DNA from: an uncultured Thermoanaerobaculia bacterium
GTDB taxonomy: Bacteria; Acidobacteriota; Thermoanaerobaculia; Thermoanaerobaculales; Sulfomarinibacteraceae
Length of the DNA: 64,000 bases
Direction: 5' to 3'
Assembly: GCA_964420405.1 (NCBI GenBank)
Contig: CAYQTL010000003.1
Coordinates: 73,154 to 137,153, forward strand
Shown here: piece after piece, positions 3,963 through 63,742 of the stretch
Layout of the letters: every line of letters begins with the position of its first letter
How positions within the stretch are numbered: position 1 is the stretch's first letter
Made by a program: the position numbers and the translations under genes
Notes under the pieces: model-generated
Databases searched by the model: none
The model's input: only the letters and a program-made list of their open reading frames with translations
What the model was told of the DNA's origin: nothing

Positions 3963-3996
3963 CCGATCCCGATCCCGATCCCGATCCCGATCCCGA
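3963..3996. repeat. (CCGATC)n hexamer array, 5 perfect units
   Basis: Read directly: ccgatc x5 then ccgac. Intergenic between the RluD-like and NfeD-like genes. Confidence 0.95.
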
Positions 3997-4040
3997 CGAG
4001 AGCGGACAGCGACGGGGGCAGCGGACGCGGCAGCCCGCCG

Positions 4041-4089
4041 GCGACCGCGGTCGCCCCCCTCCCCCGGTCCGCGTCCGTGCCCGCGTCCG
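4041..4089. repeat. Intergenic repeat module M3 (GCGACCGCGGTCGCCCCCCTCCCCCGGTCCGCGTCCGTGCCCGCGTCCG)
   Basis: Near-identical copy at 57627-57675, reverse-complement copy at 39972-40010, partial copy at 40206-40231. Confidence 0.85.
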
Positions 4090-4191
4090 ACGGGCGGCGG
4101 CGGCGCCGTTTCATCTTCCTCTCCCCGCCCGCTCACACCGGGCCGGCATCGGCGCCGGGAACGCCCCGTCCGCTCCCCGTATAATGTCCAC

Positions 4192-4734
4192 ATGACCCTC
4201 GGGTTCATCTACCTGATCCTGTTCCTCGGCGGCTTCCTGCTCGCCCTGGTGACCGGCCTGGTGCGGCGGCTGCTCCACCCGACCGCCTTGTTCGGGGACG
4301 TGGTGGCGCCGTCCCACGAGCACTGGCGAGCCCACCGCGCCCCTCTCACCGACCTGCTGGTGTCGTTCGTCACGGTGTTCGGGCTCGTCACCCTGGTGGT
4401 GCACGGCCTCGCGACGCTCGGGCCCCTGCGCGAGGTCGCGATCGGCGTCGGCGCCGGGCTGCTCGGGGCGCTCGCCCTCCGGGCGGCGCTCGGACGGGGG
4501 CGCGGGCCGGACCGGGGCGAGAACGACGGTCCCACCCACGCCACGGTCGTCCGGGAGATCCCGGTCCTCGGCTTCGGTCAGATCGAGGTGCCGGTCAGCG
4601 GGCGCACGGTCAGGCTGGCCGCCCGGGGCGAGAGCGCGGCGCCGATCCCCGTCGGCGCGACGGTGAGGATCCTCGACCGCCGGGAGTCGGTGGTGGTGGT
4701 GGCGCCGGTGGACGTCCCGGACGTGCGGAGCTGA
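4192..4734 (+). CDS. NfeD-like membrane protein
   Basis: N-terminal TM helices (FIYLILFLGGFLLALV) and C-terminal OB-like segment (GQIEVPVSGRTVRLAARGE..GATVRILD). ATG 6 nt after TATAAT (4180-4185). Confidence 0.65.
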   Translation: MTLGFIYLILFLGGFLLALVTGLVRRLLHPTALFGDVVAPSHEHWRAHRAPLTDLLVSFVTVFGLVTLVVHGLATLGPLREVAIGVGAGLLGALALRAALGRGRGPDRGENDGPTHATVVREIPVLGFGQIEVPVSGRTVRLAARGESAAPIPVGATVRILDRRESVVVVAPVDVPDVRS

Positions 4735-4741
4735 CGGCGGC

Positions 4742-5344
4742 GTGACTCCCCGCGGCCGCATCGTCCTCGCCAGCCGCTCGCCTCGCCGCCGCGAGCTCCT
4801 GACAGTGCTCGGGCTCGCGCACCACGTGGTGCCCGCCGGCGTGGACGAGTCGCAGGGCGCGGACGAGAGCCCGGCCGACCACGCCGGCCGGGTGGCCCGC
4901 GACAAGGCCACGGCGGTCGCGCGTCTGCACGCGGAAGAGCCGGTCCTCGCGGCCGACACGGTGGTCGACATCGACGGCCGGTCGCTCGGCAAGCCCAGCT
5001 CGGCCGACGACGCGGCCGCCATGCTGCGGCACCTGTCCGGCCGCTGCCACCGGGTCCATACCGGCGTGGCCCTGGTCGCCGGCGGCCGCACCGCCTGCCT
5101 CGTGGACACGGCGGAGGTCTGGTTCCGCCCCCTCACAGAGGATGCCGTCAGATGGTACGTGGCCACCGGTGAGCCGATGGACAAGGCCGGCGCCTACGCG
5201 GTCCAGGGGGCCGGCGGAGTCCTCGTGAAGCGGGTCGACGGCTCGCCGCACACCGTCATCGGCCTGCCGCTGCAGCGCCTTCCCGAGCTGTTCGAGGCGG
5301 TCGGCCTCGATCTCTGGTCCCTGCTGAGGTCGGCGGGCTCGTGA
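4742..5344 (+). CDS. maf: Maf-like nucleoside-triphosphate pyrophosphatase
   Basis: IVLASRSPRRRELL, KAGAYAVQG and TVIGLPL motifs typical of Maf/YhdE. 200 aa. Confidence 0.9.
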   Translation: MTPRGRIVLASRSPRRRELLTVLGLAHHVVPAGVDESQGADESPADHAGRVARDKATAVARLHAEEPVLAADTVVDIDGRSLGKPSSADDAAAMLRHLSGRCHRVHTGVALVAGGRTACLVDTAEVWFRPLTEDAVRWYVATGEPMDKAGAYAVQGAGGVLVKRVDGSPHTVIGLPLQRLPELFEAVGLDLWSLLRSAGS

Positions 5345-5500
5345 GGGGCGCGATGGGTCCGCGCAGTCGCGGCACGGCTGGCTGACGTGGACCGGGTCCC
5401 GTCGCGGTCGGACCCGGGAGCAACGACGGGCGCCGCGGAAGCCGTCGACCGACGCAGCTCCCGACGACGCGGCGGATGCTCTCCTGCCGAGCCCGGCCGC

Positions 5501-5827
5501 TCAACGCCCCTCGGTTCCTCCCCCGGCTCCGGAGCTGCCGCTGCACACGTACGGCTCCCCCAGGTCCACCAGCGAGAACGAGGTGAAGATGTGGTGGCCG
5601 TTGAAGTCGAGCACGCGCACGTCCTCGCGGCCCTCCAGGTCGTCCGCCAGAACCTCGTACGGCACCCCGTACACCTGCCGCACACGCTCGAGCGGCGCCT
5701 CGTAGGCGAGGAACCGGTCGATCCCCATCTGGCCGAGCTTCGTCACCAGTCGCCGGTCGGCGATGTCGGGATACGTGGTCAGGAGCAGGATCGGCCCGTT
5801 TCCCGTGAAGACGATGAACGAGCGCAC
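5501..5827 (-). CDS. Small conserved hypothetical protein (paralog B of tandem pair)
   Basis: 108 aa from GTG 5827, 8 nt after the upstream stop. Clearly homologous to the upstream gene (MRSFIVFTGNGPILLLTT.. vs MRSYMVLTETGPMLVMTS..; VYGVPYEVLADDLE vs VYGRPYDVVAAELE). Confidence 0.7.
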   Translation of the reverse strand: MRSFIVFTGNGPILLLTTYPDIADRRLVTKLGQMGIDRFLAYEAPLERVRQVYGVPYEVLADDLEGREDVRVLDFNGHHIFTSFSLVDLGEPYVCSGSSGAGGGTEGR

Positions 5828-5835
5828 CTCCGACC

Positions 5836-6342: not shown

Positions 6343-8136
6343 TCAACCGCCTGCGCCGTCGTAGGCGGCCGAGATCCCCTCCACGACGCTGCGGGCGAAG
6401 CGCTCCCTCCAGGCGGCCTCGAGCAGCAGAGCGCGGTCGGCGTCGTTGGCCATGTTGCAGGCCTCCACCAGCACCGCGTGCTGGGCGGCCGTGTAGCGCA
6501 GCACGGCGGGCACGAAGCTCCGCCGGCCCCGCAGAATCCGGTCGCGCACCGGCTGGTAGGGATGGGTCTCGACGTCGTTGGCCTCGAAACGGTCGACCAG
6601 CCGCTCGGCGAGGTGGCGGGAGGACGCCTCGACCCGAGCCTTGAACGACGGACCGAGCCGCACGGTGGGATGGTTGCGGTACTCCTGGTAACGGCCGATC
6701 TGCGGATGGCGGACGGTGAACGTCGGCGGACGCATGTAGCGGGACGGAACGTACACCATCGCCCCACGTACGCTCGGATGCAGCGAGTCGGCGTGGATCG
6801 AGACGAACACCGTCTTCGACCGGGGCACGTCCTCTCCGAGCCGGTTGAGGATGATGTCGTTGGTCAGGTACCAGCGCAGGTGCACGCCGATGACGCTGTC
6901 CCGGAGATCGTAGGTCGGCCGCGTCAGGAGGTACTGGTCGCGACGGTTCTCGAGCCGGTCGCGGTCCGGGATCCGGTCGCCGAGGGTACGGTCGAGGCGG
7001 GTCATCCAGACCGTCGCCCGGGTGTGGCGCTCCAGGATCCGCTTCACGCGGCAGGTGAGGTCGTAGACGTAGGTGGCCTCCCACACCCCCGCCACCACCG
7101 ATCCCGGGTCCGCTCCGCCGTGCCCTGCGTCGAGGACGACGTGGACGCCGCCGAGGTCGGCGGCCCGCACGACCTCCAGGAAGCGGTCGAGCTCGCGCCG
7201 CTCCGCCTCCCACGCCACCCGGCGCGGATCGTCCGCCGGCAGGTGCTCCGGCAGCAGGAGCTCGACGGGGATCTTGACCGGAAAGCCGATCGGAATCGAC
7301 GTCACGTCGTGGATTCCGGACCGCCGGGCGATGGCCGCCGCGGTGGCGTTGACCTGGTCGGCCTCGAGCTGACCGGTGAACCGCACGACCACAGCCGAGT
7401 ACAGGGCCTCGCCGGCCCGCAGCCGGTAGACGGCGAACCGGCCGTCGTCGTCCCGGCCGAAGCTCAGCGGCCCGGCAGACCCCGCCGGCGACTCCTCCGC
7501 GGGTGTCGGCGGCGGCGCGGGTGCCGCGACGGGCGTCGGCGTCGCCGGCGGGCGGACCTCGCGGAACACCGGCATCAGCAGCGCCTCTGGGACGACCACC
7601 GGCCGCCCGCGCTGCGGCGCCCCGTCCGGGTGCCCGGGGTTGGCCCGCCGCAGCTCCTCCGCCGCGCCGGCCCGTCCGGCGAAGAGCCCTGCCAGCCATC
7701 CCCAGCTCTCCTCGCCGTCGCCGAAGGGGTCGAGCGGCCAGTGCCGCCACCCTTCCGGCACCCGCTCGTCCATCGGAAACAGCCGTCGTACCACACCGAG
7801 GCGCACGGTCGGCGCGAGGGCCGTCAGCGGAACCCGCACCTCGCGGTCCCGCATCGGATCCACGAGACGCGGGTTGGCGGCACGCAGGCCGGGCGCACCG
7901 TCGGCCCCCCCCGTCCAGGTCCGGGCCAGCGAGATCCAGCCCTCTCCCCCGGCGGGCCGGACGAGCAGCATCGGAGGCTCGCCGCGGCGCCATCGCAGCA
8001 GGCCGTATCCCTCGACCTCCGTCTCCAGCAGGGAAGGCCCCTCGACGGTCGCCGCCGCAGGGAGCACGACCGCGAGGACGAGCAGGGCCCAGATGACGAC
8101 GCCGTCACCGCGGCGCGGCGTGCGCCCGCTCGTCAC
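6343..8136 (-). CDS. N-acetylmuramoyl-L-alanine amidase (Amidase_3) with long N-terminal region
   Basis: VVLDAGHGGADPG, VFVSIHADS and LVEACNMAN motifs of AmiA/B/C-type amidases. Start placed at GTG 8136, giving a signal-like TSGRTPRRGDGVVIWALLVLAVVLPAAA. Start uncertain. Confidence 0.8.
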   Translation of the reverse strand: MTSGRTPRRGDGVVIWALLVLAVVLPAAATVEGPSLLETEVEGYGLLRWRRGEPPMLLVRPAGGEGWISLARTWTGGADGAPGLRAANPRLVDPMRDREVRVPLTALAPTVRLGVVRRLFPMDERVPEGWRHWPLDPFGDGEESWGWLAGLFAGRAGAAEELRRANPGHPDGAPQRGRPVVVPEALLMPVFREVRPPATPTPVAAPAPPPTPAEESPAGSAGPLSFGRDDDGRFAVYRLRAGEALYSAVVVRFTGQLEADQVNATAAAIARRSGIHDVTSIPIGFPVKIPVELLLPEHLPADDPRRVAWEAERRELDRFLEVVRAADLGGVHVVLDAGHGGADPGSVVAGVWEATYVYDLTCRVKRILERHTRATVWMTRLDRTLGDRIPDRDRLENRRDQYLLTRPTYDLRDSVIGVHLRWYLTNDIILNRLGEDVPRSKTVFVSIHADSLHPSVRGAMVYVPSRYMRPPTFTVRHPQIGRYQEYRNHPTVRLGPSFKARVEASSRHLAERLVDRFEANDVETHPYQPVRDRILRGRRSFVPAVLRYTAAQHAVLVEACNMANDADRALLLEAAWRERFARSVVEGISAAYDGAGG

Positions 8137-8194: not shown

Positions 8195-9868
8195 ATGGTA
8201 CCACGCCACACCCACCGGGCCGGAGGGCTTCCCGGGCGCCTCCTCGAGCAGCTCGACGAGCTGCTGCGGGCGGCGGCCGAGGACGAGTCAGGGCGACAGC
8301 AGTACCTGCTCCGAGCCTCGCGGCTGCTCGCCGAGCAGCTCGACGCCGACCGCGTCACGCTGCTGGTGCCCGCCGGAGCGGACACCTACCGGGTGGTGGC
8401 CGGGACGGAGGCCGAGTCGGTGGGCGACGTGCTCACCGCTGTCGACCGGTACCCCGAGCTCGAGCGCGTCCGCAGCACCGGCCTGCCGGTGCTGGTGGGT
8501 GACGTCGCCACCAGCGAGCTGTTGGCCCCGGTCCTGGCCGAGCGGCGCCGGGACGACGAGGCGAGCCTGATGGCCGCCCCGGTCCGGCTGCCCGCCGTCG
8601 CGGCCGTGCTGCGCGCGGCGTCGGGTCGCCGGTCGTTCGGGCGCGACGACCTGCGCCGGCTGATCGAGGTCGCCGCCCATCTCGAGCAGACCCTCGAGAG
8701 CGTAACCGCGCTCGAGTCCCGGCCGGGTGGGTGGGCGGTGGTCGCGAGGATGCTGGCCGACGCCGTCCTCGAGGTGGCGGTCGACGGCCGCATCACCGCC
8801 GTCCATCGCGGGCCGTCCAACCGTCTCCCCTGGCCGGCGGACATCGCGGGCTCGCTGGTCGGGCGGGCGCTGCACCATGCCGACGGCACCGGACGGCCGG
8901 TGCCGACGACCGACATCGTCACCGCGCCCGACCAGGCCGTGCTGACGCTCGCCGCCGTCCTGCCCGGGCGGGAACCGGTCCCGGTCCGGGCCATCGTCTC
9001 CCGCACCAGCGGCCTGCCGCCGCGGGTGCTGGTGGCGCTGACGACGGTGCCGGCGGCAGTGTCGGCGGTGCGCGACGCGCCCTCGGCCGAGGAGCGGGAG
9101 GCGGGCCTGCGCGCCCGCCTCGGGGAGACGCTCGCGGAGCTGGAGCGGCTCGAGCACCGCCTGTCGCAGGTGGAGACATCCCGCCACCGGTTCGTGTCGG
9201 CCTCGGCCCACGAGCTGAAGACGCCGATCACCGTCATCCAGAGCTACCTCGAGATCGTGCTCGACGACCTCGGTGAGGGCCTCGGCGAGGAGCAGCGCTC
9301 GTTCCTGACGATCGCTCACGAGAACGTGCTCCGCCTGCGCCGCCTGGTGACGGACCTGGTGGACCTGGCCGCGATGGACTCGGGCAGGATCCAGCTCCAG
9401 ATCGGGCGGGTCGAGGTCGGGCCGCTGCTGGAGAGGATCGCGGCCGAGCTGTCGCCCCTTTCCCGGCGTGCCGACATCGACCTCGCCGTCGAGATCGAGC
9501 CGCCGCCGCCGGTGGTGCGGGGATCGGAGGAGCGGATCGAGCAGATCCTCCGCGGCCTGCTCGACAACGCGCTCAAGTTCACGCCTCCCGGCGGCCTGGT
9601 GACGTTGCGCGGGCGCACCCGGGAGGACTCGGTGCTGCTCGAGGTGGCCGACACCGGGCAGGGCATCGCCGCGGAACGGCTCGACACCCTGTTCGACGAG
9701 TTCGTCCAGGCGGGGCCGTCGCTCGACCCCCGCCGCCGCGGCGCCGGGCTCGGCCTGTCGATCGCCAGGCGGGTGGCGCTCGCCCTGGGCGGCAAGATCA
9801 CCGTCGCGAGCCGCGAGGGCGAGGGCTCGACCTTCACGGTGTGGCTCCCCCGCTGGCCGGGAGAGTAG
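8195..9868 (+). CDS. GAF-containing sensor histidine kinase
   Basis: N-terminal GAF-like region, H-box FVSASAHELKTPITVI, HATPase_c boxes (LLDNALKFTPPGG, DTGQGI, GAGLGLSIARR). ATG 8195 is 25 nt after TATACT (8164-8169). Confidence 0.85.
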   Translation: MVPRHTHRAGGLPGRLLEQLDELLRAAAEDESGRQQYLLRASRLLAEQLDADRVTLLVPAGADTYRVVAGTEAESVGDVLTAVDRYPELERVRSTGLPVLVGDVATSELLAPVLAERRRDDEASLMAAPVRLPAVAAVLRAASGRRSFGRDDLRRLIEVAAHLEQTLESVTALESRPGGWAVVARMLADAVLEVAVDGRITAVHRGPSNRLPWPADIAGSLVGRALHHADGTGRPVPTTDIVTAPDQAVLTLAAVLPGREPVPVRAIVSRTSGLPPRVLVALTTVPAAVSAVRDAPSAEEREAGLRARLGETLAELERLEHRLSQVETSRHRFVSASAHELKTPITVIQSYLEIVLDDLGEGLGEEQRSFLTIAHENVLRLRRLVTDLVDLAAMDSGRIQLQIGRVEVGPLLERIAAELSPLSRRADIDLAVEIEPPPPVVRGSEERIEQILRGLLDNALKFTPPGGLVTLRGRTREDSVLLEVADTGQGIAAERLDTLFDEFVQAGPSLDPRRRGAGLGLSIARRVALALGGKITVASREGEGSTFTVWLPRWPGE

Positions 9869-10030
9869 CACCTTCGCGCCCGTACCCCCCGCTTCCCGAT
9901 CCCGACGGTGCCGCCGGCGATAGCCCCCACGAGCGGCGCCACCCACACGATCGACGACAGCGACCGGGGGCGGGTGCGGCGACGAGCCGCGGTCCCGGCG
10001 TGCGCTGCTCTCCGGCGGGACAGAGCACGC

Positions 10031-10053
10031 ATCGGGATCGGGATCGGGATCGG
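10031..10053. repeat. (GGGATC)n hexamer array, about 3.5 units
   Basis: atcgggatcgggatcgggatcgg, between convergent kinase and AI-2E genes. Confidence 0.9.
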
Positions 10054-10076
10054 AGGAGGCCTCGGTGCGGCCTCCT
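10054..10076. terminator. Hairpin between convergent genes (AGGAGGCC-tcggtgc-GGCCTCCT)
   Basis: 8-bp GC-rich stem overlapping the AI-2E stop codon. No U-tract, so function is inferred only from position. Confidence 0.35.
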
Positions 10077-11202
10077 AGACGAGCTCCCGGACGTACTTCT
10101 CGCGCGCCAGGCGCCAGAAGACCACCAGGAAGGCGGTCAGGGGGATCGCCAGGATCATGCCGAGGATGCCGGACAACGCCGTTCCCCAGAAGAAGATGGC
10201 GACGATGATCACCATCGGGTGCAGCCCCGTCCGGTCGCCCATGATCTTGGGCGTCAGCAGGTAGCCCTCGATCATCTGCACCGCCGCGAACACCGCCAGC
10301 ACCAGGGCGACCCGGAGCCAGCCGCCGCCGTCCTGGAGGAACGCCAGCGGCAGCGCCGTGCCGAGCCCGACGATGTTGCCGAGGTACGGGATGATGTTCA
10401 GGAAGCCCAGCACCAGGCCGATCACGAACCCGTACCGGAGCCCGACCACGCTGAACCCGATCGCGAACAGCAGCCCCTGCAGGAAGGCGATGATCAGCTG
10501 GCCGCGGAAGAACGCCACGATGATGGCGACGAACTCGCGCACCAGGTAGACGACGTCCTCGCGGGTGCTCTGCTTGAGAAACGGCAGGTAGTTCTCGAGC
10601 CTCTGGAAACGCGGCTCGACCAGCAGGAAGAACGCGAAGTAGACCGGAGTCACCGCCCACGCCAGCAGCGTCGCCACCGCCGACAGCACGTCCCTGCCCG
10701 CCGACAGGGCACGGGTCCCGAACTGCTGCAGCCCCTGCACCAGATTCCCCTGGCCGCCCTCCACCGCCCCCGTCAGGCTCTGCAGGATCGGGTGGCTGCG
10801 GATGAACTCGGCGACCTGCGGCGCGTGCTGCCGGACCGCCTCCACCGCCGACCGCCAGTAGCCGGGGATGCGCTCCACGAGGTCGCCCACCTGCTCGACG
10901 ATGATCGCGCCGAAGAACCAGCCGAACGCCGCCAGCGGGATCAGCACCGACAGGAACACCGCCACGATCGCCGCGACCCGGGGCAGCCGGGCGCGTTCGT
11001 GGAGCCAGTCGAAGTAGGGCTTGAAGACCAGCGCGGCCACCGCGGCGACGGCGAGCGGCAGGAACACGTTGGAGAACCGCCCCACGAACAGGCCCAGCAA
11101 CCAGAACAGCCCGCCGATGGCGAGCAGGATCACGAGAGCGGCGAGGATCGTCACCGCGGCGGCCACCGTCGCCCGCTGCCGTTCGCTGAGGTCGAGCTGC
11201 AT
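10075..11202 (-). CDS. AI-2E family transporter (PerM/UPF0118)
   Basis: 375 aa with about 8 TM helices. C-terminal FFWGTALSGILGMILAIPLTA is typical of the family. ATG 6 nt after TATCAT (11214-11209, minus strand). Confidence 0.85.
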   Translation of the reverse strand: MQLDLSERQRATVAAAVTILAALVILLAIGGLFWLLGLFVGRFSNVFLPLAVAAVAALVFKPYFDWLHERARLPRVAAIVAVFLSVLIPLAAFGWFFGAIIVEQVGDLVERIPGYWRSAVEAVRQHAPQVAEFIRSHPILQSLTGAVEGGQGNLVQGLQQFGTRALSAGRDVLSAVATLLAWAVTPVYFAFFLLVEPRFQRLENYLPFLKQSTREDVVYLVREFVAIIVAFFRGQLIIAFLQGLLFAIGFSVVGLRYGFVIGLVLGFLNIIPYLGNIVGLGTALPLAFLQDGGGWLRVALVLAVFAAVQMIEGYLLTPKIMGDRTGLHPMVIIVAIFFWGTALSGILGMILAIPLTAFLVVFWRLAREKYVRELV

Positions 11203-17084: not shown

Positions 17085-17317
17085 GGGCGTGAAGGAGGGC
17101 CGGCGCTTCCGGTACCCGCCCTCGGCCGAGACGATGCCGGAGACGCAACGGTTCCCGGCCGCGTCACCTCCGGGGGAGCCGGCGGACGCCGGACCGTATC
17201 CGCACAGAGCCCTCGCACTCTCACACCTTCGCACCCTCGCGCTCTCGCCCGATCAGCGCGGGGACGGCCACGACGACGCCTCCGGCCGCCCGTGCGCCGG
17301 GCTTGCGGACGCCTTCC

Positions 17318-19680: not shown

Positions 19681-19739
19681 AACCCTCGAGGCGGCGCCGG
19701 CCGGCGTCGCCTCGGCCCTCTCTCGCTGTCTGACATTGA

Positions 19740-19802
19740 ACGACATCCGGAGGACGAAACAAGGGGCTCGTCGAGCCCCTTGTTTCGTCCTCCGGATGTC
19801 GT
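19740..19802. terminator. 63-nt perfect palindrome (31-bp arms) between convergent genes
   Basis: Positions 19740-19770 pair perfectly with 19772-19802 (checked base by base). Overlaps the rpmB stop codon, 60 nt after the M20 stop. No U-tract. Confidence 0.55.
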
Positions 19803-20041
19803 CAGGTGACGTCCTTCAGCCGCAGCCCCTCCGACCGAAGGAACGCCATCAGCCCCTTCTTGTCGATCGTGCGCAGGGCGCGGGTGGACGCCTTCACCCG
19901 GACGCTGCGCCCGAGCTCCTGGACGAAGACCTTCTTCTTCTGGATGTTCGGGAGCTGGCGGCGCTTGGTCTTCCGGTTCGAGTGGGAGACCCGGTTGCCC
20001 ACCAGCGGGCCCTTGCCGGTCAGTCTGCAGCGACGTGCCAT
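19802..20041 (-). CDS. rpmB: 50S ribosomal protein L28
   Basis: MARRCRLTGKGPLVGNRVSHSNRKTKRR.. is unmistakably L28. GGAGGGAG SD. Confidence 0.95.
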   Translation of the reverse strand: MARRCRLTGKGPLVGNRVSHSNRKTKRRQLPNIQKKKVFVQELGRSVRVKASTRALRTIDKKGLMAFLRSEGLRLKDVT

Positions 20042-44125: not shown

Positions 44126-44139
44126 GCCGGGAGCCCGCA

Positions 44140-45704: not shown

Positions 45705-45808
45705 CGTGCCAGTGTGGTTCGGACCACCGGTCCGGTCAAGGCGTCTGGCGCGCCGCACACGTCCGCTACAATGCGCGGCATTCGGCCGACGAGGGGAGGA
45801 TGTCGGAC

Positions 45809-48074: not shown

Positions 48075-48096
48075 TCCCGATCCCGATCCCGATCAC
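48075..48096. repeat. (CCCGAT)n hexamer array, 3 units
   Basis: tcccgatcccgatcccgatcac, 14 nt after the PFK stop. Confidence 0.9.
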
Positions 48097-48905: not shown

Positions 48906-48947
48906 CCCGATCCCCCGCCGGCGGTGTCGTCGCAAGCCGGTCGCCCG

Positions 48948-48996
48948 CTCCGATCCCGCTCCCGATCCCGATCCCGATCCCGATCCCGATCCCGAC
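48948..48996. repeat. (CCCGAT)n hexamer array, about 7-8 units (longest in window)
   Basis: ctccgatcccgctcccgatcccgatcccgatcccgatcccgatcccgac, read directly; intergenic. Confidence 0.95.
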
Positions 48997-52228: not shown

Positions 52229-52268
52229 AACCGCCCCCCCCCGCACCCCCCCTCCCGATCCCGCTCCC

Positions 52269-52324
52269 GTCATCCTGAGCGACCGGAGCGCCCGTCAGGG
52301 CGCGGAGGGAGTCGAAGGACCTCC
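52269..52324. repeat. Intergenic repeat module M1, copy 2
   Basis: Matches 3876-3931 except for the central loop (cccgtcagggcgcgg vs cccttggggacgcgg). Confidence 0.9.
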
Positions 52325-52376
52325 ACACTCGCTGCGCCGCCGTTCACGGAGGTCGGAACAGCCACGGAGCCAGGAT

Positions 52377-52417
52377 CAGCGGCAGCGACAGGGTCAGCGA
52401 CAGGGTCAGCCGCAGCG
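52377..52417. repeat. Repeat module M4 (CAGCGACAGGGTCAGC units)
   Basis: cagcggcagcgacagggtcagcgacagggtcagccgcagcg. Runs into the 221-bp repeat. Confidence 0.8.
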
Positions 52418-52621
52418 TGCAGCCCCCGGGCGACCTCGGTCTCCCCTCTCTCGCGTCCTCTCCCCCGTCCGCACCGATGCGGCGGCAGGAGCAGCGGCAG
52501 CGACGACACCGGATCCCGAATCCCGCCGCCCGCCACCTGCCGCCCGGATCCCAAGCTCCGGGCGGCGGGTGGCCGGAATCGGGAGCCGGGCTTCGGGTTC
52601 CGGCGGTCGCGGCCCGGCTGC
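52401..52621. repeat. 221-bp perfect direct repeat, left copy
   Basis: Identical base for base to 56797-57017 (offset 4396, checked by eye). Contains a 16-bp-stem hairpin at 52533-52572. Confidence 0.95.
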
Positions 52622-52634
52622 TTGCGGGTTGCGG

Positions 52635-52813
52635 GTGCCCGGTCCGACGATTTGGCGATCTTGAAGTCTGCCTCCGCGCCGTGGTGACCCGCTCATCAAG
52701 CCGTCGAACTGCGTCGTGGCCTCGAAACGGTGGAGAGGAACCGGGACGAGCCCACGCTCGAGAGCCGACCCAGGAACCGTCCCAGGGAATCGCCAGATCG
52801 TCGGGCCCGGCAC
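52635..52813. mobile_element. MITE-like element, left copy (about 179 bp with about 26-bp terminal inverted repeats)
   Basis: Ends GTGCCCGGTCCGACGATTTGGCGATC and GAATCGCCAGATCGTCGGGCCCGGCAC are inverted repeats (about 22/26 match). Second copy at 56237-56422. No ORF inside. Confidence 0.55.
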
Positions 52814-52858
52814 CGCAAGCCACAAGCGTGGACACCATTACGAGGAAGCCCCCGAAGT

Positions 52859-52946
52859 GTCCGCGTTCGCTCGAATCACTGTCCGCGTTCCCTCGAGTTC
52901 GTGTCCACGTTCGCTCGGAACCCTGTCCGCGTTGCGTCGGCCTCCG
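52859..52946. repeat. Four direct repeats with exact 22-bp period (core GTCC[G/A]CGTT[C/G])
   Basis: Cores start at 52859, 52881, 52903 and 52925. The units share GTCCGCGTTCGCTCG-like heads and variable tails. Confidence 0.85.
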
Positions 52947-53124
52947 CAGTGAAGGACCTTGTGCCGACATGGCCGTGTTGTGAGGTTGTTATCAGTGGCA
53001 CCTTTGACTGGCACGGTTTCACCAACCGGCTATTGAAACCGGCGGACGGGTGCCTGGCATCCGCCGATCGCCATGGGGCGCGGGATGGCCGGTTCTGCTT
53101 CAGCGGTGCCCCACCTTCTGAGAA

Positions 53125-55563: not shown

Positions 55564-55677
55564 GTCAGTCTTTCGCGGTCGGTAACGGAAGTACCCGGGT
55601 CGAAGCTGAGTCGGCTGGCTGCGGTTGAGGGAAGGCGGCGGCGCATCCAGCCTTATTGGTTGATCCCTCGATGATGA

Positions 55678-55962
55678 TCACCTCGCAGAACGACCCCCCA
55701 GAGTGCACATGGTGCCCATGGGGAAGATCTGGTCCTCGTCGCAATTGCATTTGCCCACGACTCCAGGCAAGGTCGTAATGCAGCGAGAACCGAACAGTGG
55801 TATGTACATACACTTATAGCAATCGTACGGCGGGCTCCAACAGGTATACGACCCTCCTTCGGCGTCAACCTGTCCTGTTCCCAGACACGCGGCTCCAAAA
55901 GCAAGCGTCAGGATCGTCACCTTCAGCGAAGTACGTAACCCAACAAAGGTCGTCGTTTTCAT
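55678..55962 (-). CDS. Cys-rich secreted mini-protein (94 aa), no recognised family
   Basis: AAAGGAGG 5 nt before ATG 55962. Signal MKTTTFVGLRTSLKVTILTLAFGAACLG. Remainder has Cys pattern C-x6-C-x2-C-x9-C-x10-C-x-C-x11-C. Directly upstream of, and co-oriented with, the 812-aa gene. Confidence 0.75.
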   Translation of the reverse strand: MKTTTFVGLRTSLKVTILTLAFGAACLGTGQVDAEGGSYTCWSPPYDCYKCMYIPLFGSRCITTLPGVVGKCNCDEDQIFPMGTMCTLGGRSAR

Positions 55963-55980
55963 CCGTGCCTCCTTTTCTGA

Positions 55981-56009
55981 ATTTTGGCGTTTCCCATTTT
56001 CGTGGTCAA
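55981..56009 (-). promoter_or_regulatory. Sigma70-like promoter for the Cys-rich gene (TTGACC-17 nt-CAAAAT)
   Basis: On the minus strand, TTGACC (56009-56004), a 17-nt spacer, then CAAAAT (55986-55981), about 18 nt before the ATG. A direct repeat CTAGAG-CG-CTAGAG (plus-strand reading) lies just upstream, at about 56029-56042. Confidence 0.4.
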
Positions 56010-56236
56010 CTGTTTTCTTGGCAACAGCTAGAGCGCTAGAGATAGTAAGTTCTTTTTCAGTCATCCTGCGGAGATTATTCCCAAGTCGGGATACACCTGC
56101 GTGAGCCGCGTGCTCGGGCCGTGTTGAGCGCCCGGACGGAGGCGTTCGACCGCGGCCGAGGCGCCTGGGGACTGGGGGCTCCCGCGATCGTGGGCGGACG
56201 AACACGGGAGCATTCAGCATTCCCTAAATGTTGCGG

Positions 56237-56422
56237 ATGCCTGGTCCGACGATTTGGCGATCTTGAAGTCTGCCTCCGCGCCGTGGTGACCCGCTCATCA
56301 AGCCGTCGAACTGCGTCGTGGCCTCGAAACGGTGGAGAGGAACCGGGACGAGCCCACGCTCGAGAGCCAACCCAGGAACCGTCCCCCGTCCCAGGGAATC
56401 GCCAAATCGTCGGGCCCGGCAC
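56237..56422. mobile_element. MITE-like element, right copy
   Basis: Collinear with 52635-52813 (same orientation). A few substitutions plus a 6-7 bp insertion (ccccgt) near the right end. Same inverted termini. Confidence 0.55.
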
Positions 56423-56453
56423 CGAAACCGAAACCCGAAACCCGGCACCGAAA

Positions 56454-56759
56454 ATGGCCATGTCAGGCAGAACGTCGGTCGGGCACTCCTCGCCCGGCGC
56501 CGGCTGCGGGTCAACGACCTCGGGGCCGGCCGGGATCCTCGCCGGCGCGGCGAGCGTGATCAGCAACGACACCGGCCCCGCCCACCTCGGCGCGGCGCTC
56601 GGCCGCCCGAGACTGACCCTCTTCGGCGACAAGGACCCGAACTGGCCCGCGGCGCGAGGGTCCCGGGCCGTGGCCCTCGGCGCTCTCGGAGCGCGGCCCT
56701 GCCTCGACGATGCCTGGGATGCCTGGCGCGGGCTCGCGACCCTTCCGATCCGTTCCTGA
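56454..56759 (+). pseudogene. 3-prime remnant of a GT9 (heptosyltransferase-like) glycosyltransferase
   Basis: ASVISNDTGPAHLGAALGRPRLTLFGDKDPNWP matches the conserved C-terminal GT9 block (..NDSGPMHLAAALG.P.V.LFG..). Only about 100 codons remain, and the upstream sequence is the MITE copy. Confidence 0.5.
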
Positions 56760-56813
56760 CAGCGGCAGCGGCAGGGACAGCGACAGGAGGCAGCGTCAGG
56801 GTCAGCCGCAGCG
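56760..56813. repeat. Repeat module M4
   Basis: cagcggcagcggcagggacagcgacaggaggcagcgtcagggtcagccgcagcg. Runs into the right 221-bp repeat. Confidence 0.8.
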
Positions 56814-57017
56814 TGCAGCCCCCGGGCGACCTCGGTCTCCCCTCTCTCGCGTCCTCTCCCCCGTCCGCACCGATGCGGCGGCAGGAGCAGCGGCAGCGAC
56901 GACACCGGATCCCGAATCCCGCCGCCCGCCACCTGCCGCCCGGATCCCAAGCTCCGGGCGGCGGGTGGCCGGAATCGGGAGCCGGGCTTCGGGTTCCGGC
57001 GGTCGCGGCCCGGCTGC
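56797..57017. repeat. 221-bp perfect direct repeat, right copy
   Basis: Identical to 52401-52621. Hairpin at 56929-56968. Confidence 0.95.
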
Positions 57018-57109
57018 GGCGCGCTGCGCCGGATGTGGACGCCTCATGCCGGCTCGACGACGGGACAGGGATCGGGAGACGCAGCCGCGGTCCGCGACCG
57101 CCCGGCCCC

Positions 57110-57626: not shown

Positions 57627-57675
57627 GCGACCGCGGTCGCCCCCCCTCCCCCGTCCGCGTCCGTGCCCGCGTCCG
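57627..57675. repeat. Repeat module M3
   Basis: gcgaccgcggtcgccccccctcccccgtccgcgtccgtgcccgcgtccg, near-identical to 4041-4089. Confidence 0.85.
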
Positions 57676-57742: not shown

Positions 57743-57872
57743 ACCCGCTCGCCGCGGGCGGACCTCCGCACCCATCGGGAGCGGATCGGGTTCGGAACGG
57801 AGGCGTCCGACGGAAGATCGCCCCCGGGAGGTGTCACGTCCCGGGGGCGACGGAGGCCGTCGCGGGCCGCTT

Positions 57873-59111
57873 TCAGCGCCCGAGGTCGATCCGGCGGATC
57901 TCCTTCCACGGCACGTAGGTCTCGCCGCCGTCGCCGAGCACGACGACGCCGGCGTTGCGGTCGGTCACGTCCTGTCCGTCCTCGAGCCGCAGCTCCTCTG
58001 CGGAGGTCAGCCTGACCACGGCGCCGCCGCGGCGGTCGGGCTCGATCGACGCCACCATCGCGAACGGGATCGCGTACTCGATCCCGTCGGCGCCGCCGTG
58101 CAGCATCTCCCAGCCCTCCGCCTCGTCGAGGTCGTAGACCAGCCGGCCCGAGTGGGTCGCGCCGTCGACCGTCGTCACCCGCCCCTCGATCGGACCGCCG
58201 CCGTCGAAGGCGTCGTACCCCCGGCCGGAGCCCGATGCCGGGCGCAGCTCGACACGACGGAAGCCGCCCCAGTCGAGCTCGACGCGGCCGAAGCGTGGAT
58301 CCTCCACGAAGATCCCCCGGATGGAGGAGTCCACGTCGTTGGTGCCGTCGAGGACCAGCTCGCGGCCGTCGGCGAGGGTCACCTTCGCGCTCGAGCGGCT
58401 GTGGCGCTCGATCACCGCGATCCGGCCCATCGGGATCGACATCCGGCCGTCCTCCGAGTCGCCGTCGAGCTCGTCGCTGGAGAGGCACTCCTGCGAGTCC
58501 CACATGACGAAGCCGTCGAAGGTGCCGTCGTCGCCGACCACCGTTCCCTCGAGCCTCCGGGCGGGTGCGGGGGTCCCCGCGGGTGCCGCCGAGAAACGGA
58601 TGCGCTCGATCTTGCCCCACGGCACCTCGATGGCGCCGAGGGTGGCGTCGGCGACGTGGATCGTCGCGGTGACGTCGTTGGCGTAGCCCTCGACCCGGTA
58701 GGTCGAACCGGTCTTCATCCGGACCTCGGCCTCGCCGTCGCCCGGCACCGCGATCTCGGCGATGTCGCCGAACCGCGCGGCGAAGATGCGCCCGCCGGCG
58801 CCGTCCTCCCACGACACCCGGAACCGCTTGCCGAAGAGGTCCCACCAGCGCTCCTGGCGGCCGCCGTCGCCAGCCGCCTCGTCCTCGTACCGCTCGAGGT
58901 ACTCCAGCCCCTGCTTGGCGGAGTGGAACACGTCGTCCCAGAACGCCTCCTCGTCGTCCCAGCGCAGCACTCCGGTGTACTCGCCGCCGCTGCGGGTGGT
59001 CACGGTGCCGTGGATGAAGCCCGCGGCGTCATCCGCCGCAGCCGGTGCCGCCGCGACGGCGAGCAGGCCGGCGACGATCGCGATCGGAATCCGTCTCGTG
59101 ATGGTGGTCAT
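57873..59111 (-). CDS. Secreted protein with three internal repeats, unknown function (ECF operon member)
   Basis: Signal MTTITRRIPIAIVAGLLAVAAAPAAA. The repeat G-x-V-x-T..G..-[YF]-x-G-x-[LV]-x-[WY]-D..E occurs three times (GFIHGTVTTRSGGEYTGVLRWDDEE; LEGTVVGDDGTFDGFVMWDSQE; IEGRVTTVDGATHSGRLVYDLDE). GGAGGA SD. Confidence 0.75.
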   Translation of the reverse strand: MTTITRRIPIAIVAGLLAVAAAPAAADDAAGFIHGTVTTRSGGEYTGVLRWDDEEAFWDDVFHSAKQGLEYLERYEDEAAGDGGRQERWWDLFGKRFRVSWEDGAGGRIFAARFGDIAEIAVPGDGEAEVRMKTGSTYRVEGYANDVTATIHVADATLGAIEVPWGKIERIRFSAAPAGTPAPARRLEGTVVGDDGTFDGFVMWDSQECLSSDELDGDSEDGRMSIPMGRIAVIERHSRSSAKVTLADGRELVLDGTNDVDSSIRGIFVEDPRFGRVELDWGGFRRVELRPASGSGRGYDAFDGGGPIEGRVTTVDGATHSGRLVYDLDEAEGWEMLHGGADGIEYAIPFAMVASIEPDRRGGAVVRLTSAEELRLEDGQDVTDRNAGVVVLGDGGETYVPWKEIRRIDLGR

Positions 59112-60951: not shown

Positions 60952-61214
60952 GGACGGATGCTACCAGGAGCCCCGGTCTCCGATCCCGTTCCCGACGCCC
61001 GACCCGCGGCGTGGTCCGCAGGTCGCGGAACCCGGCGCTGCGGCGCCCGACCTCCCGAAGCAGCAGGTCGCCACCTTCACACCCTCACACCGTCCCCACC
61101 GTGGCACTCGGACACATGTCCCGCGCCGGGATCGGGACGCCACGAAGAAGCCCCGCGGCGCGCACGCCGCGGGGCTCCGTCGCACGGGGGGTGAGCCCGT
61201 TCACACGCGGTCTG

Positions 61215-61982
61215 TCAGCCCTGGTTGATCCGGATCGACCCGTTGACGGTCTCGATCGAGATCTCGGCCCCGCCGCCGCCGACCGTGCCGCGGAGGTCGC
61301 GGCCGACGTACGTGCCCTTGTGGACCGGCAACCCGAAGTCGTTCCGGATCGAGCCGTTGACGGTCTCCACGTCGAGGTCGGCACCGACGCCCGGTGCCAG
61401 GAACAGCTCGATCCGGCCGTTGACGGAGTCGAGCTCCACCTCGTCTCCGGGAGCGAGCACATCGAGACGGACGTCGATCGTCCCGTTGACGGTCTCCAGG
61501 ACGATCGGCGGACGCACACCCTCCAGCTCGATGTCCCCGTTGACGCTGTCGACCTCGACGCCCCCTTCGACGCCGACCACCCGGAGGTTGCCGTTGATCA
61601 GGTCGAAGCCGTCGATCTCGGCGCCTCGCGGGACCGTCAGGCTGTACTCCACCTCGCTGTGGCCGCGCTCGCCGGCGCCGACACCGCGGGACGACGGGTA
61701 CTCGGTCCGGATGCGCAGGTCGCGGTCGCTCGCGTCGACCTCGATCCTGAGGTCCCGCAGTCGGTCGGCGTCGCTCGCCCGCTTGACCGCCCACACCCGC
61801 ACCTCGGCGTTGTCCCATACCTCGACGGTGACGTCGCCGTTGATGTTGTCCAGCGAGATCCGCCCGTCCCGCGCGAGCGGGTAGGTCCGGTCGAAGGTCT
61901 CCTCCACCTGGGCGAGGGCGATCCCCGCCGCGCCGATCACCAGCACCGCCACCGCGGCCGAGAGGCGACTCCTGAGGGTCAT
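61215..61982 (-). CDS. DUF4097-like repeat protein (putative adhesin fold)
   Basis: Signal LSAAVAVLVIGAAGIALA. Recurrent VNG[DS]I / NG[NR][IL] beta-strand repeats (INGDVTVEV, VNGDIELEG, VNGTIDVRL, VNGRIELFL, VNGSIRND, VNGSIRIN). AAGGAG 9 nt before ATG 61982. Confidence 0.75.
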   Translation of the reverse strand: MTLRSRLSAAVAVLVIGAAGIALAQVEETFDRTYPLARDGRISLDNINGDVTVEVWDNAEVRVWAVKRASDADRLRDLRIEVDASDRDLRIRTEYPSSRGVGAGERGHSEVEYSLTVPRGAEIDGFDLINGNLRVVGVEGGVEVDSVNGDIELEGVRPPIVLETVNGTIDVRLDVLAPGDEVELDSVNGRIELFLAPGVGADLDVETVNGSIRNDFGLPVHKGTYVGRDLRGTVGGGGAEISIETVNGSIRINQG

Positions 61983-62254
61983 GGTCGAGCTCCTTTCCGT
62001 CCTCATGCCCCTTCGATGCCGGAGACGAGCCCAGGGTTGAAAGGCGCCCGGCGCAGCCGAGAAACGGCATCGCTCCGACCCGCGGCAGGCGACCATCCGC
62101 CGCACCCGTCCCGTTCCCGAACCCGCGCCCGAGCGAGGTCCTCCAGTCGCGGCAGCTTCTCACCGCAGAGGCGGGGGTACTGAGGGGCCATGCGCCACGC
62201 CTGCCCGGCGACCCTGCCGCTGGGGCCTGTCGCTGTCGCTGACACACCGCCACC

Positions 62255-62283
62255 ATCGGGATCGGAATCGGGATCGGAATCGG
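62255..62283. repeat. (GGGATC/GGAATC)n hexamer array
   Basis: atcgggatcggaatcgggatcggaatcgg, in the divergent spacer between the DUF4097-like and FKBP genes. Confidence 0.9.
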
Positions 62284-62366
62284 AGGCGCGGAGACGGCGA
62301 CACGCGGCCCGGCCTCCGGTGGCCCCCGGTTGCGCGCCGACCGCCGTCGCGGTAGCCTCCGCAGCC

Positions 62367-63164
62367 ATGAGAAACCGCACTCTCGCGACGCTCGCCTGCC
62401 TGCTTCTCGCCACCGCCGCACTCGCCGGCGACCCGATCCCGGCGCCGGCCGACGTCGAAGCCCCGCCCGAGGACGCCGAGGTGACGGCCTCCGGCCTCGC
62501 CTCCAAGGTGCTCGAGGAGGGCGACGGCGACGTGCATCCCGGCCCGAGCGACGCCGTCACCGTCCACTACACGGGATGGACGACCGACGGGAAGATGTTC
62601 GACTCGTCCGTCCAGCGCGGGCAGCCCGCGACGTTTCCGCTCAACCGTGTCATCGCCGGCTGGACCGAGGGCCTCCAGCTGATGGTCGAGGGCGAGACGC
62701 GGCGGATCTGGATTCCCGAGGAGCTCGCCTACAAGGGCCAGCCGGGCCGGCCCGCCGGGATGCTGGTCTTCGACGTCGAGCTGCTCGAGATCCACACCGC
62801 ACCGAAGGCACCGGCCGACGTCGCCGCACCGCCGGAGGACGCCGCGGTCACGAAGAGCGGTCTCGCGTCGAAGGTGATCGCGAAGGGGACCGGCACCGGA
62901 CACCCGAAGGCGTCGAGCCGCGTCACCGTCCACTACACCGGCTGGACCACCGACGGCGAGATGTTCGACTCGTCGATCACCCGGGGCAAGCCTGCGACCT
63001 TCCCCCTCAACCGGGTGATCGCCGGCTGGACCGAGGGCCTGCAGCTGATGGTCGTCGGCGAGACGCGCCGCTTCTGGATCCCCGAGGAGCTCGCCTACGA
63101 AGGCCGACCCGGCGCACCGCAGGGAATGCTGGTGTTCGACGTCGAGCTGCTGTCGTTCGAGTAG
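62367..63164 (+). CDS. Secreted tandem-domain FKBP-type peptidyl-prolyl isomerase
   Basis: Two FKBP domains (VTVHYTGWTTDG[KE]MFDSS..FPLNRVIAGWTEGLQLM..LVFDVELL, twice). Signal MRNRTLATLACLLLATAALAG. ATG 8 nt after TAGCCT (62353-62358). Confidence 0.88.
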   Translation: MRNRTLATLACLLLATAALAGDPIPAPADVEAPPEDAEVTASGLASKVLEEGDGDVHPGPSDAVTVHYTGWTTDGKMFDSSVQRGQPATFPLNRVIAGWTEGLQLMVEGETRRIWIPEELAYKGQPGRPAGMLVFDVELLEIHTAPKAPADVAAPPEDAAVTKSGLASKVIAKGTGTGHPKASSRVTVHYTGWTTDGEMFDSSITRGKPATFPLNRVIAGWTEGLQLMVVGETRRFWIPEELAYEGRPGAPQGMLVFDVELLSFE

Positions 63165-63184
63165 CCGGCCCCGCCGGAACCGCC

Positions 63185-63574
63185 ATGGCCGACCTTGACG
63201 ACGTCCTGGTGGTGGAGGACAACCCGCAGAACCTCGAGCTGGTGACCTACCTGCTCGAAGAGGCCGGGATCCGCGTCCGTTCGGCGGGGGACGCGGGCAC
63301 GACCCATCTCGTCCTCGCCGCCGGCCTGCCCGATGCGGTCCTGATGGACATGCAGCTCCCGGGAACCGACGGCCTCGGGTTGGTGGCCCGGCTGCGGGCC
63401 GACCCACGGACCGCCCACCTGCCCATCATCGCGCTCACCGCCCACGCCATGCGCGGCGACCGCGAGCGCTTCCTCGCGGGCGGCTGCGACGGCTACCTCG
63501 CCAAGCCGATCGACACCGCCACCTTCGTCGACGACGTCCGCCGGCTCGTCGCCGAGGTGCGCCGCCGCCGCTGA
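63185..63574 (+). CDS. Single-domain response regulator (CheY-like)
   Basis: VLVVEDNPQN, AVLMDMQLPGTDG, IIALTAHAM and GYLAKPID receiver motifs. 129 aa. Confidence 0.88.
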   Translation: MADLDDVLVVEDNPQNLELVTYLLEEAGIRVRSAGDAGTTHLVLAAGLPDAVLMDMQLPGTDGLGLVARLRADPRTAHLPIIALTAHAMRGDRERFLAGGCDGYLAKPIDTATFVDDVRRLVAEVRRRR

Positions 63575-63601
63575 GCCCCGCGCTCCTGGTCACGATCGCG
63601 G

Positions 63602-63624
63602 CCCGTTCCGATCCCGATCCCGAG
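63602..63624. repeat. (CCCGAT)n hexamer array
   Basis: cccgttccgatcccgatcccgag. Inverted relative to 63710-63742. Confidence 0.9.
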
Positions 63625-63709
63625 GGGGACGATGTGATCGGCGACGGCGAACGGGCCGGTCAGCACTGTCCGACTCGAACCGCACCACCGGTGCGCATTC
63701 CTGCGCGGC

Positions 63710-63742
63710 ATCGGGATCGGGATCGGGATCGGGATCGGATCG
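63710..63742. repeat. (GGGATC)n hexamer array, about 5 units
   Basis: atcgggatcgggatcgggatcgggatcggatcg, read directly. Confidence 0.95.

Follow-up and report, generated by a model that had tools for sequence, protein, structure and literature searches.

Repetitive extragenic palindromic (REP) sequences, bacterial interspersed mosaic elements (BIMEs) and REP doublets forming hairpins (REPINs), as found in Enterobacteria and Pseudomonas, are high-copy, strictly extragenic and species-specific, are located mostly directly past stop codons, are found either singly or in inverted doublets folding into long hairpins, form fixed-order mosaics with other short motifs, and vary in presence or absence between close relatives. 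These properties are shared, with the hairpins as predictions, by the tandem hexamer arrays described here, which lie in the spacers of a 64,000-nucleotide stretch of DNA (hereafter, the window) from an uncultured Thermoanaerobaculia bacterium of the phylum Acidobacteriota (assembly GCA_964420405.1, contig CAYQTL010000003.1, positions 73,154 to 137,153). Unlike REP sequences, the arrays are tandem hexamers of variable length rather than an imperfect palindrome of 20-40 nt, they have no GTAG head, and no gene for a REP-associated transposase (RAYT) was found within the 64-kb window. Their paired arms are also separated by 28-201 nt of unique sequence across 12 pairs of the lineage (83-167 nt in the six pairs of the window, these being longer than REPIN interiors).

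Miniature inverted-repeat transposable elements (MITEs) are likewise intergenic, 100-260 bp long and bounded by terminal inverted repeats of fixed polarity, which in the paired arrays means the C-rich arm first in 12 of 12 cases. An interior shared between copies, as in MITEs, is found just for two copies in the metagenome-assembled genome (MAG) Prado016 (80% identity) and in a Desulfobacteraceae element that recurs at 82-92%; in the window, unlike in MITEs, no interior is related to another, target-site duplications were not seen, and the number of units per arm varies. DNA uptake sequences (DUS) and uptake signal sequences (USS), known from Neisseria and Haemophilus, are short and over-represented, often form inverted hairpin pairs downstream of genes, and differ between lineages as "dialects". 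These are single 10-12-mers, whereas the arrays, comparable at most by analogy, are tandem. In maize, the Ac/Ds element, a eukaryotic hAT element, carries subterminal AAACGG hexamers that are tandem or clustered, inverted at both element ends and read by the transposase; this may serve as an analogy only. There is no evidence here for any transposase. G-quadruplex (G4) motifs are enriched bacteria-wide downstream of gene ends on the template strand, according to the Quadrupia catalogue (PMC12581993), and the arrays resemble them in their G3N3 repeats and in having the G-rich strand as template past stop codons. What the catalogue reports is an enrichment in the statistical sense rather than a family of repeats; furthermore, several arrays and several dialects of relatives miss the G4 motif, and pairing with a C-arm would compete with G4 formation. 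No description of such arrays in bacteria was found in literature searches that covered the repeat strings themselves, hexanucleotide repeats in bacterial spacers and Thermoanaerobaculia repeats. The arrays resemble both REP/BIME/REPIN elements and MITEs, yet they fail the defining features of both.

Distribution, polarity and predicted pairing of the arrays

All 11 arrays listed by an earlier note on this DNA, which was made from the sequence alone, were recovered in place with Tandem Repeats Finder (period 6, 2.7-7.7 copies, 77-100% matches); GGGATC and CCGATC are one hexamer, read from opposite strands or in shifted phase. In the window, which has a G+C content of 73.5%, GGGATCGGGATC with at most one mismatch has 34 matches compared with 1.38 expected, and the looser pattern CCCGNNCCCGNNCCCG has 22 compared with 0.44 expected; for both, none of 100 shuffles scored as high. 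Exact period-6 arrays of at least 15 nt number 17, of which 8 belong to the GGGATC/CCCGAT hexamer class and at most two to any other. Genes were called by codon bias and checked by Pfam matches on most genes, and on a related locus with reference calls (L116) the caller gave matching stop codons except for two short genes that it missed. Although 82.4% of the window is coding on this map, all 11 arrays are in spacers (p about 5e-9), which upholds the earlier claim that every array is intergenic, and the same is true of all of the arms in the window, about 17 when shorter runs are included. Of the short traces, those at 9889, 60978 and 61128 were confirmed, and each is an arm of a pair (9889 with 10031; 60978 with 61128), the trace at 52252 is a 3-core array, and arms at 33631-33653, 62110-62133, 57774-57790 and 48906-48914 were absent from the earlier note.

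The arrays are not assembly artefacts, because contig L198, which was assembled independently (Logan SRR15425350), matches 61966-63622 at 100% identity, and this segment contains the array at 62255-62283. The same contig ends inside the array at 63602-63624, which indicates that the arrays behave as multi-copy repeats in assembly. Short-read contigs often start or stop inside arrays (the end of L198 and of L100, and the starts of L102, L054 and L104), suggesting that the arrays entangle assembly graphs.

The main anatomical facts, which the earlier note did not contain, are polarity, inverted pairing and predicted hairpins. That both orientations occur was correctly noted, but they are not randomly placed, since the position in the spacer fixes the orientation: on the + strand, spacers have (CCCGAT)n on their left and (ATCGGG)n on their right, so that the C-rich strand always reads inward from the nearer gene edge, whether this is a stop or a start. 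The C-type arrays of the window start 14-49 nt past the stop in most cases and 76-127 nt past it in two, and the G-type arrays end 48-172 nt before the next start, which leaves space for a promoter. Six spacers, with convergent, tandem and divergent types represented, contain both arms, always the C-arm and then the G-arm; five arrays are single (3963, 40089, 48075, 48948 and 52254). When the loci of related genomes described below were included, the pair order was 9 C-first to 0 G-first with a strict CCCG regular expression, 8:0 with a detector open to any hexamer unit, and 12:0 when weaker arms were counted (two-sided p about 5e-4). The recurrence of one hexamer that is non-random, exclusively intergenic, polar and often paired bears out the earlier suggestion of a specific mechanism rather than assorted microsatellites.

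In minimum-free-energy folds of either strand, the C-arm pairs with the G-arm in 6/6 window pairs; the terminal segments form 17-32 bp with each other, and the predicted energies are -71 to -139 kcal/mol (z -0.6 to -5.5); the weaker z-scores result from long interiors, which dilute the signal. The CCCG:CGGG cores are always paired in the predicted folds, and the two variable positions are matched in some pairs (for instance, CCCGTT with AACGGG at 33631/33737) and form small internal loops in others. The spacers with single arrays are predicted to have no more structure than shuffles (z +0.78 and -0.97). At their inner ends, C-arms on the + strand mostly terminate as CCCGA|CG, and those on the - strand all terminate as CCCGAT|G (1/8 compared with 6/6 for the latter ending, Fisher p = 0.005), a strand asymmetry in a supposedly symmetric pair. 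A coding role or read-through peptide was ruled out: the arrays occur on both strands and have no gene-like codon bias, and their distance from the stop is uniform modulo 3.

The arrays (module A) are one of several intergenic repeat modules in the window. Module B is (GTCGCT/GACCCT/GCCGCT)n. Module C, a G/C-skewed 49-nt repeat containing CCCCCGTCCGCGTCCGTGCCCGCGTCCG, is located at 4041-4089 and 57627-57675 (94% identity), in reverse complement at 39970-40011 (91%), and in a further copy at 40203-40226; in L116, whose LpxC is 83% identical, it is found at 1971-2008, 7042-7127 and 9912-9964, places that are not orthologous to those in the window. Module D, a 57-nt repeat (GTCATCCTGAGCGACCGGAGCGCCC…GGAGGGAGTCGAAGGACCTCC) with no literature match, is located at 3875-3931 and 52268-52324 (93% identity), and both copies adjoin a CCCGAT array (3963-3996 and 52254-52269). 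The order C-B-A occurs twice, at 39970-40117 (+) and 3955-4090 (-), and therefore two of the apparently single arrays belong to a larger stereotyped mosaic. Module B is also found directly before a G-arm in locus L030 of MAG Bin_252 and, in the window, at 62227-62283.

Table 1. Hexamer arrays and shorter arms in the window, with strand, neighbouring genes and partners
Feature	Position	Strand	Setting
(CCGATC)5.7 array, single	3963-3996	+ C-rich	123 nt past stop of pseudouridine synthase gene 2878-3840; read on the - strand, A module of C-B-A mosaic 3955-4090
Short C-arm CCCGATCCCGAC	9895-9908	+	26 nt past stop of histidine kinase gene 8195-9868; partner 10031-10053
G-arm, (ATCGGG)3.8 on + strand	10031-10053	- (CCCGAT)	Convergent spacer; 22 nt past stop of AI-2E transporter gene 10075-11202 (-)
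C-arm CCGATCCCGCGCCCGTTCCCGAT	33631-33653	+	Partner 33737-33760
G-arm ATCGGGAACGGGATCGGGATCGGG	33737-33760	- C-rich	34 nt past stop of gene 33795-34268 (-)
(ATCGGG)4.5, single G-type array	40089-40117	-	168 nt upstream of start 40285; 3' module of C-B-A mosaic 39970-40117, with (GTCGCT/GACCCT/GCCGCT)n before it at 40018-40088
C-arm, CCCGAT/CCCGTT units	44140-44181	+	Convergent spacer; 15 nt past stop of gene 43571-44125
G-arm, interrupted ATCGGG units	44349-44387	-	16 nt past stop of LpxC-REC gene 44403-45704 (-); partner 44140-44181, interior 167 nt
(CCCGAT)3.5, single	48075-48096	+	14 nt past stop of phosphofructokinase gene 45800-48061
Extra CCCGATCCC	48906-48914		Between stop 48905 and array 48948-48996
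(CCCGAT)7.7, single, longest array	48948-48996	+	43 nt past stop at 48905; predicted spacer structure no greater than shuffles
CCCGATCCCGCTCCCG, single	52254-52269	+	25 nt past stop of radical SAM gene 51137-52228; 57-nt module D directly after
Short G-type trace ATCGGGAGCGGATCGGG	57774-57790	-	Spacer side adjoining stop of gene 57873-59111 (-)
Short C-arm CCGATCCCGTTCCCGAC	60980-60996	+	Partner 61128-61139
Short G-arm GGGATCGGGACG	61128-61139	-	76 nt past stop of gene 61215-61982 (-); partner 60980-60996
C-arm CCCGTTCCCGAACCCGCGCCCGAG	62110-62133	+	Divergent spacer; partner 62255-62283
G-arm (ATCGGG/ATCGGA)5	62255-62283	-	84 nt upstream of FKBP gene start 62367; preceded by (GTCGCT)2.5 at 62227-62241
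C-arm CCCGTTCCGATCCCGATCCCGAG	63602-63624	+	28 nt past stop of response-regulator gene 63185-63574
G-arm (ATCGGG)5.5	63710-63742	-	71 nt upstream of start 63813; partner 63602-63624, interior 85 nt

The genes of the window are ordinary chromosomal ones, pfk, pgk, rpmB/rpmG, an LpxC-receiver fusion, histidine kinases and a molybdopterin dehydrogenase among them, and by Pfam matches none of the genes in these 64 kb encodes a transposase, a RAYT, a Dam-type methylase or Rho. The Rfam scan of the window had no match at gathering thresholds, and the match at E<0.1 (19740-19803) was rejected as a false miRNA call on an ordinary hairpin. A search of viral contigs for the arrays gave one match only. 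A perfect long hairpin (…GGAGGACGAAACAAGGGGCTCG…CGAGCCCCTTGTTTCGTCCTCC…) at 19681-19801, where the M20 peptidase and rpmB genes converge, is the one feature noticed in the window spacers that looks like a classical bidirectional terminator; it is also the source of the false miRNA call. At the other end of genes, 33 have a spacer of at least 40 nt, and in 8 of these a TANNNT box terminates 4-13 nt before the predicted start, compared with about 0.6 expected (starts 4192, 11202(-), 18208(-), 18502, 23631, 40285, 62367 and 63813), which suggests leaderless transcripts for these genes; other genes have GGAGG-type ribosome-binding sites. The statement that most genes are leaderless was rejected as too strong, since the -10-like box is directly before the start in 8/33.

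The region at 52229-57109 consists of 4.9 kb without host-like codon bias, with a G+C content of 57-67% compared with 74% elsewhere, and holds an 812-amino-acid open reading frame (ORF), 53125-55563 (-), with CarboxypepD_reg repeats. Two repeats bracket the region, a direct one of 240 bp (52383-52621 and 56778-57017, 98.75% identity) and another at 52628-52815 and 56230-56424 (94%), which gives it the look of an insertion or duplication. Further tandem repeats located in spacers are (CCCTCGCA)4.9 at 17210-17248 and a 22-nt unit present 3.5 times (TGTCCGCGTTCGCTCGAATCCC) at 52858-52933.

Dialects and turnover in related genomes

The comparison set consisted of about 800 kb from 80 related metagenome loci with 65-78% protein identity. 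Exact GGGATC arrays are absent from these loci, which instead contain (CCCGNN)n arrays with at least three cores, namely CCCGTT in L139, CCCGAG/CCCGTG in L116, L122 and L125, and CCCGCG/CCCGTG in L115, as well as the related units CCGCTT in L139 and L183 and CCGCGT in L116. In 860 kb of lineage DNA, 22 of 24 CCCGNN arrays are intergenic (p about 6e-11), and 14 of these 22 are C-rich in the sense strand and located 2-127 nt past a stop codon, 12 of them within 49 nt. The window, with 11 arrays in 64 kb, has about tenfold the density of the relatives, with 13 in about 770 kb. Arrays of GGGATC as such were found in three further Thermoanaerobaculia MAGs (Bin_252, bin.607 and Prado016), where they are likewise intergenic and post-stop and form C-first pairs. 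As judged from these sequences, the shared core is CCG or CCCG at a 6-nt period, and GATC belongs to one dialect only.

Beyond the lineage, species-representative genomes were scanned for (GGGATC)4 as a sample, not a census; among the matches listed, (GGGATC)n of at least four units is scattered across many phyla, about half in coding and half in intergenic sequence by approximate gene calls, and certain genomes contain large numbers of them. A Gemmatimonadetes MAG has both C-first and G-first orders. In the Desulfobacteraceae MAG S24.Bin080 (about 48% G+C), a palindromic MITE-like element of 150-185 bp (L015, L018, L036, L085, L095, L098 and L110) has outer arms GGCATCCTTCAT…GTTTACA and a central stem of (ATCGGG)n/(GATCCC)n that is always G-first; at least six loci have the element, at 82-92% identity. 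The polarity is fixed per lineage and is not universal, which counts against a purely physical cause of the C-first order.

The spacers that bear arrays change rapidly. The flanking genes are 88-91% identical in nucleotide sequence between the window and L115, and the array-free divergent spacer 45705-45799 is within a continuous high-scoring segment pair of 91% identity, whereas nothing in L115 could be aligned with the convergent spacer 44128-44386, which bears arrays. Its homology with the L115 orthologue was rejected, because the alignment was noise; the orthologous spacer is 106 nt long and contains CCCGCG/CCCGTG and GCCGCT hexamers. The idea in the earlier note that the arrays are remnants of a mobile module gains real support from this replaced spacer in a relative of about 91% identity, and further support from a dispersed unit in Prado016 and from the Desulfobacteraceae element, which shares the hexamer stem. 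In Prado016, the whole arm-interior-arm unit is repeated (L026 7519-7693 and L103 6539-6713, 80% over 176 nt). Conservation of the array at the orthologous LpxC 3' end was also rejected, since a CCCGNN array is present in 2 of 64 flanks (the window and L122). For strain-level length polymorphism, none of the pairs compared was informative: L198, the sole contig from the same genome, is identical to the window, and L139/L141 and L116/L117 are identical duplicates.

A different pattern was found in the spacer upstream of the DHH-CBS-polyA-polymerase gene, where three of four genomes have hexamer-array pairs with differing units. The window has the C-B-A mosaic there, L183 (about 4940-5150) has CTTCCG…CGGAAG, and L186 has GTCTCC…GGAGAC. 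L183 and L186 are 90% identical to each other, and both of their pairs are C-rich-first. Unrelated short tandem repeats, which are genome-specific, directly follow the LpxC stop, within its first 100 nt, in L120, L121, L131 and L184, with the units (AAATTCC)n, (AATTGAG)n and (ACGCAAAG)n, and post-stop tandem repeats may be a general habit of the lineage. The LpxC gene itself (44403-45704, -) is fused to an N-terminal response-regulator receiver domain, a fusion that is present in 120 of the 120 top-scoring homologues listed, out of 4,712 matches. LpxC-receiver homologues number in the thousands, and the few with a source name bear the labels Holophagae, Thermoanaerobaculia or Acidobacteriota. 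Exact look-ups of two proteins of the window gave no match.

Explanations for the arrays

We favor, tentatively, the explanation that the arrays belong to a family of mosaic repeats, extragenic, dispersed and REP/BIME/REPIN- or MITE-like, of which each genome across this acidobacterial lineage has its own dialect, with a building block that is the tandem YCCGNN hexamer (here CCCGAT) and not a single palindrome. It is ranked first because it covers the copy number, the dialects, the polarity, the mosaics, the rapid replacement of spacers, the assembly breaks and the Prado016 unit. Such arrays could be spread or rebuilt by a copy mechanism, possibly helped by a trans-acting enzyme that reads the hexamers, would change in length through slippage, and would persist where they are tolerated, that is, past stop codons and upstream of promoters. 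Pairs that are transcribed would form very stable hairpins at the ends of transcription units, which could block 3' exonucleases, hinder read-through and insulate neighboring units, as REP elements do, and single C-rich arrays would remain unstructured. Such predicted hairpins at transcription-unit boundaries are a likely physical consequence of the arrays and possibly a co-opted role. The GATC sites look incidental, since they follow from the CCCGAT dialect, rather than being a selected feature.

Several observations weigh against dispersed mosaic repeats. The weak point is the unrelated interiors in the window: those of the six pairs show no similarity to one another, to other window sequence or to any of the loci retrieved, which is a poor fit to whole-unit transposition, and a whole-unit MITE in the window was ruled out by these comparisons. 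No target-site duplications were seen by eye in the array flanks, where fuzzy array ends could hide short ones, and the 64-kb window has neither a transposase nor a RAYT gene. The arms are not palindromic, and their ends lack the REP head. Furthermore, the pattern at the DHH-CBS-polyA-polymerase spacer is more like a maintained structure than random insertion, and the C-first rule across at least four unit dialects could equally result from functional constraint as from common descent.

The explanation ranked second, although rather unlikely, is that the arrays are functional boundary elements that arose at their present sites, with a unit that drifts and a structure that is maintained. A (CCCGAU)n tract past a stop would then be an unstructured C-rich landing site for Rho, and an added G-arm would form a long hairpin that terminates or insulates transcription coming into the spacer from either side. 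Arrays mostly start 2-52 nt past stop codons, the single-array spacers show the lack of predicted structure given above and the unit has a C:G ratio of 3:1, and the C-first polarity is kept across dialects, all of which agree with such a role, as do the different hexamer pairs at one orthologous spacer in 3/4 genomes. Canonical U-tract terminators were not found in the intergenic parts of the 40 kb scanned, which also fits dispersed mosaic repeats. In classical terminators such as trp t and the thr attenuator, the stem consists of a 5' arm CCCG… and a 3' arm …CGGG. However, there is no lineage-wide C excess past stop codons, where a general rut-like composition is absent, many gene ends in the window have no array, as is the case for all but two of the 64 orthologous LpxC 3' ends, and the arrays are 18-48 nt long, compared with 60-80 nt for typical rut sites (Rho-loading tracts). 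The stems are strong, but the other features of intrinsic terminators (a 3-8 nt loop and a U-tract) are absent, with interiors that far exceed terminator loops, and a terminator scan finds none at the arrays; moreover, one pair is located between divergent promoters (61983-62366), where there is nothing to terminate. It is improbable that the arrays are cis-acting boundary elements that obey an orientation rule and are read by a dedicated factor co-evolving with each genome's 2-nt dialect, for which a lineage-specific RNA- or DNA-binding protein, or Rho, could be the candidate. If true, this would be a transcription-unit insulation system of Thermoanaerobaculia made from rapidly evolving hexamer satellites, and it would account for the different hexamer pairs at one spacer in 90%-identical genomes.

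The remaining explanations refer to the hexamer itself. Since (GGGATC)n with at least four units is canonical G3N3, the arrays might be G-quadruplex or i-motif elements that modulate transcription or absorb supercoiling, acting from the template strand past gene ends and, upstream of promoters, from the sense strand. Of 17 G4 motifs in the window, 11 are intergenic and about 10 of these are arrays, the post-stop arrays place the G-run on the template strand in accordance with the trend in PMC12581993, and most dialects retain a GGG run. This is nevertheless quite unlikely: the motif (at least four G3 runs, loops of at most 7 nt), here a match in sequence only, is found in about 10 arrays and is missing from shorter arms, there being fewer than four G3 runs at 48075, 63602, 9895, 61128 and in the ATCGGA variant at 62255; the CCGCTT and CCGCGT dialects of relatives have just GG runs; the conserved C beside the G-run is not accounted for by it; and paired arms would favor a duplex stem. 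Ordinary neutral microsatellites, generated by replication slippage and purged from genes because they disrupt proteins, would be consistent with the 6-nt unit, with copy numbers of 2 to 12 between sites, and with the roughly equal coding and intergenic shares in other phyla among the matches listed, as expected of a plain repeat. The tandem hexamer is the only part of a simple microsatellite that is seen here, as both position and orientation are strongly constrained, and slippage alone does not account for the dominance of a single hexamer class in the window, the fixed polarity at spacer edges and the 12:0 pair order, the stereotyped C-B-A mosaic or the tenfold density over relatives, which makes this explanation very unlikely. 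An equally low probability is given to a role as arrayed binding sites on double-stranded DNA, whether for a system that reads GATC (Dam-type methylation, SeqA-like) or for another protein that binds tandem hexamers cooperatively and sequence-specifically. As the earlier note pointed out, each canonical unit has a GATC, which makes the arrays dense in this site; tandem short units are used by Fur, MetJ and other cooperative binders, and the genome-specific dialects could reflect co-evolution with a protein. But the note's proposal of methylation clusters as the point of the arrays was not supported, because relatives have units without GATC (CCCGTT, CCCGAG/CCCGTG, CCGCTT and CCGCGT) at similar places, and the survival of the architecture without GATC counts against such a role. 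GATC is also common throughout the window (494 sites, compared with about 151 expected from base composition by hand calculation), so that the arrays are no special sinks, the 64 kb encode no methyltransferase, Dam-type or other, nor an obvious candidate binder, and a 6-bp spacing would place successive sites on different helix faces. Of the readings considered, GATC methylation is the least supported.

Implications

If the favored reading holds, the arrays would have a practical cost, in that they break short-read assemblies and produce spurious ORFs (PIPIPI and GIGIGI runs) in the annotation of MAGs. They also call for caution, in that clusters of GATC should not be taken for methylation signals where GATC is a by-product of a repeat unit. 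If the arrays are indeed dispersed mosaic repeats, an uncultured-rich class of the Acidobacteriota would fill its transcription-unit boundaries with a previously undescribed extragenic repeat, consisting of polar, hairpin-forming YCCGNN arrays whose unit changes between 90%-identical genomes. This would provide a tractable case for the concerted evolution of bacterial non-coding repeats and a candidate for the marking of gene ends in high-GC genomes without U-tract terminators.

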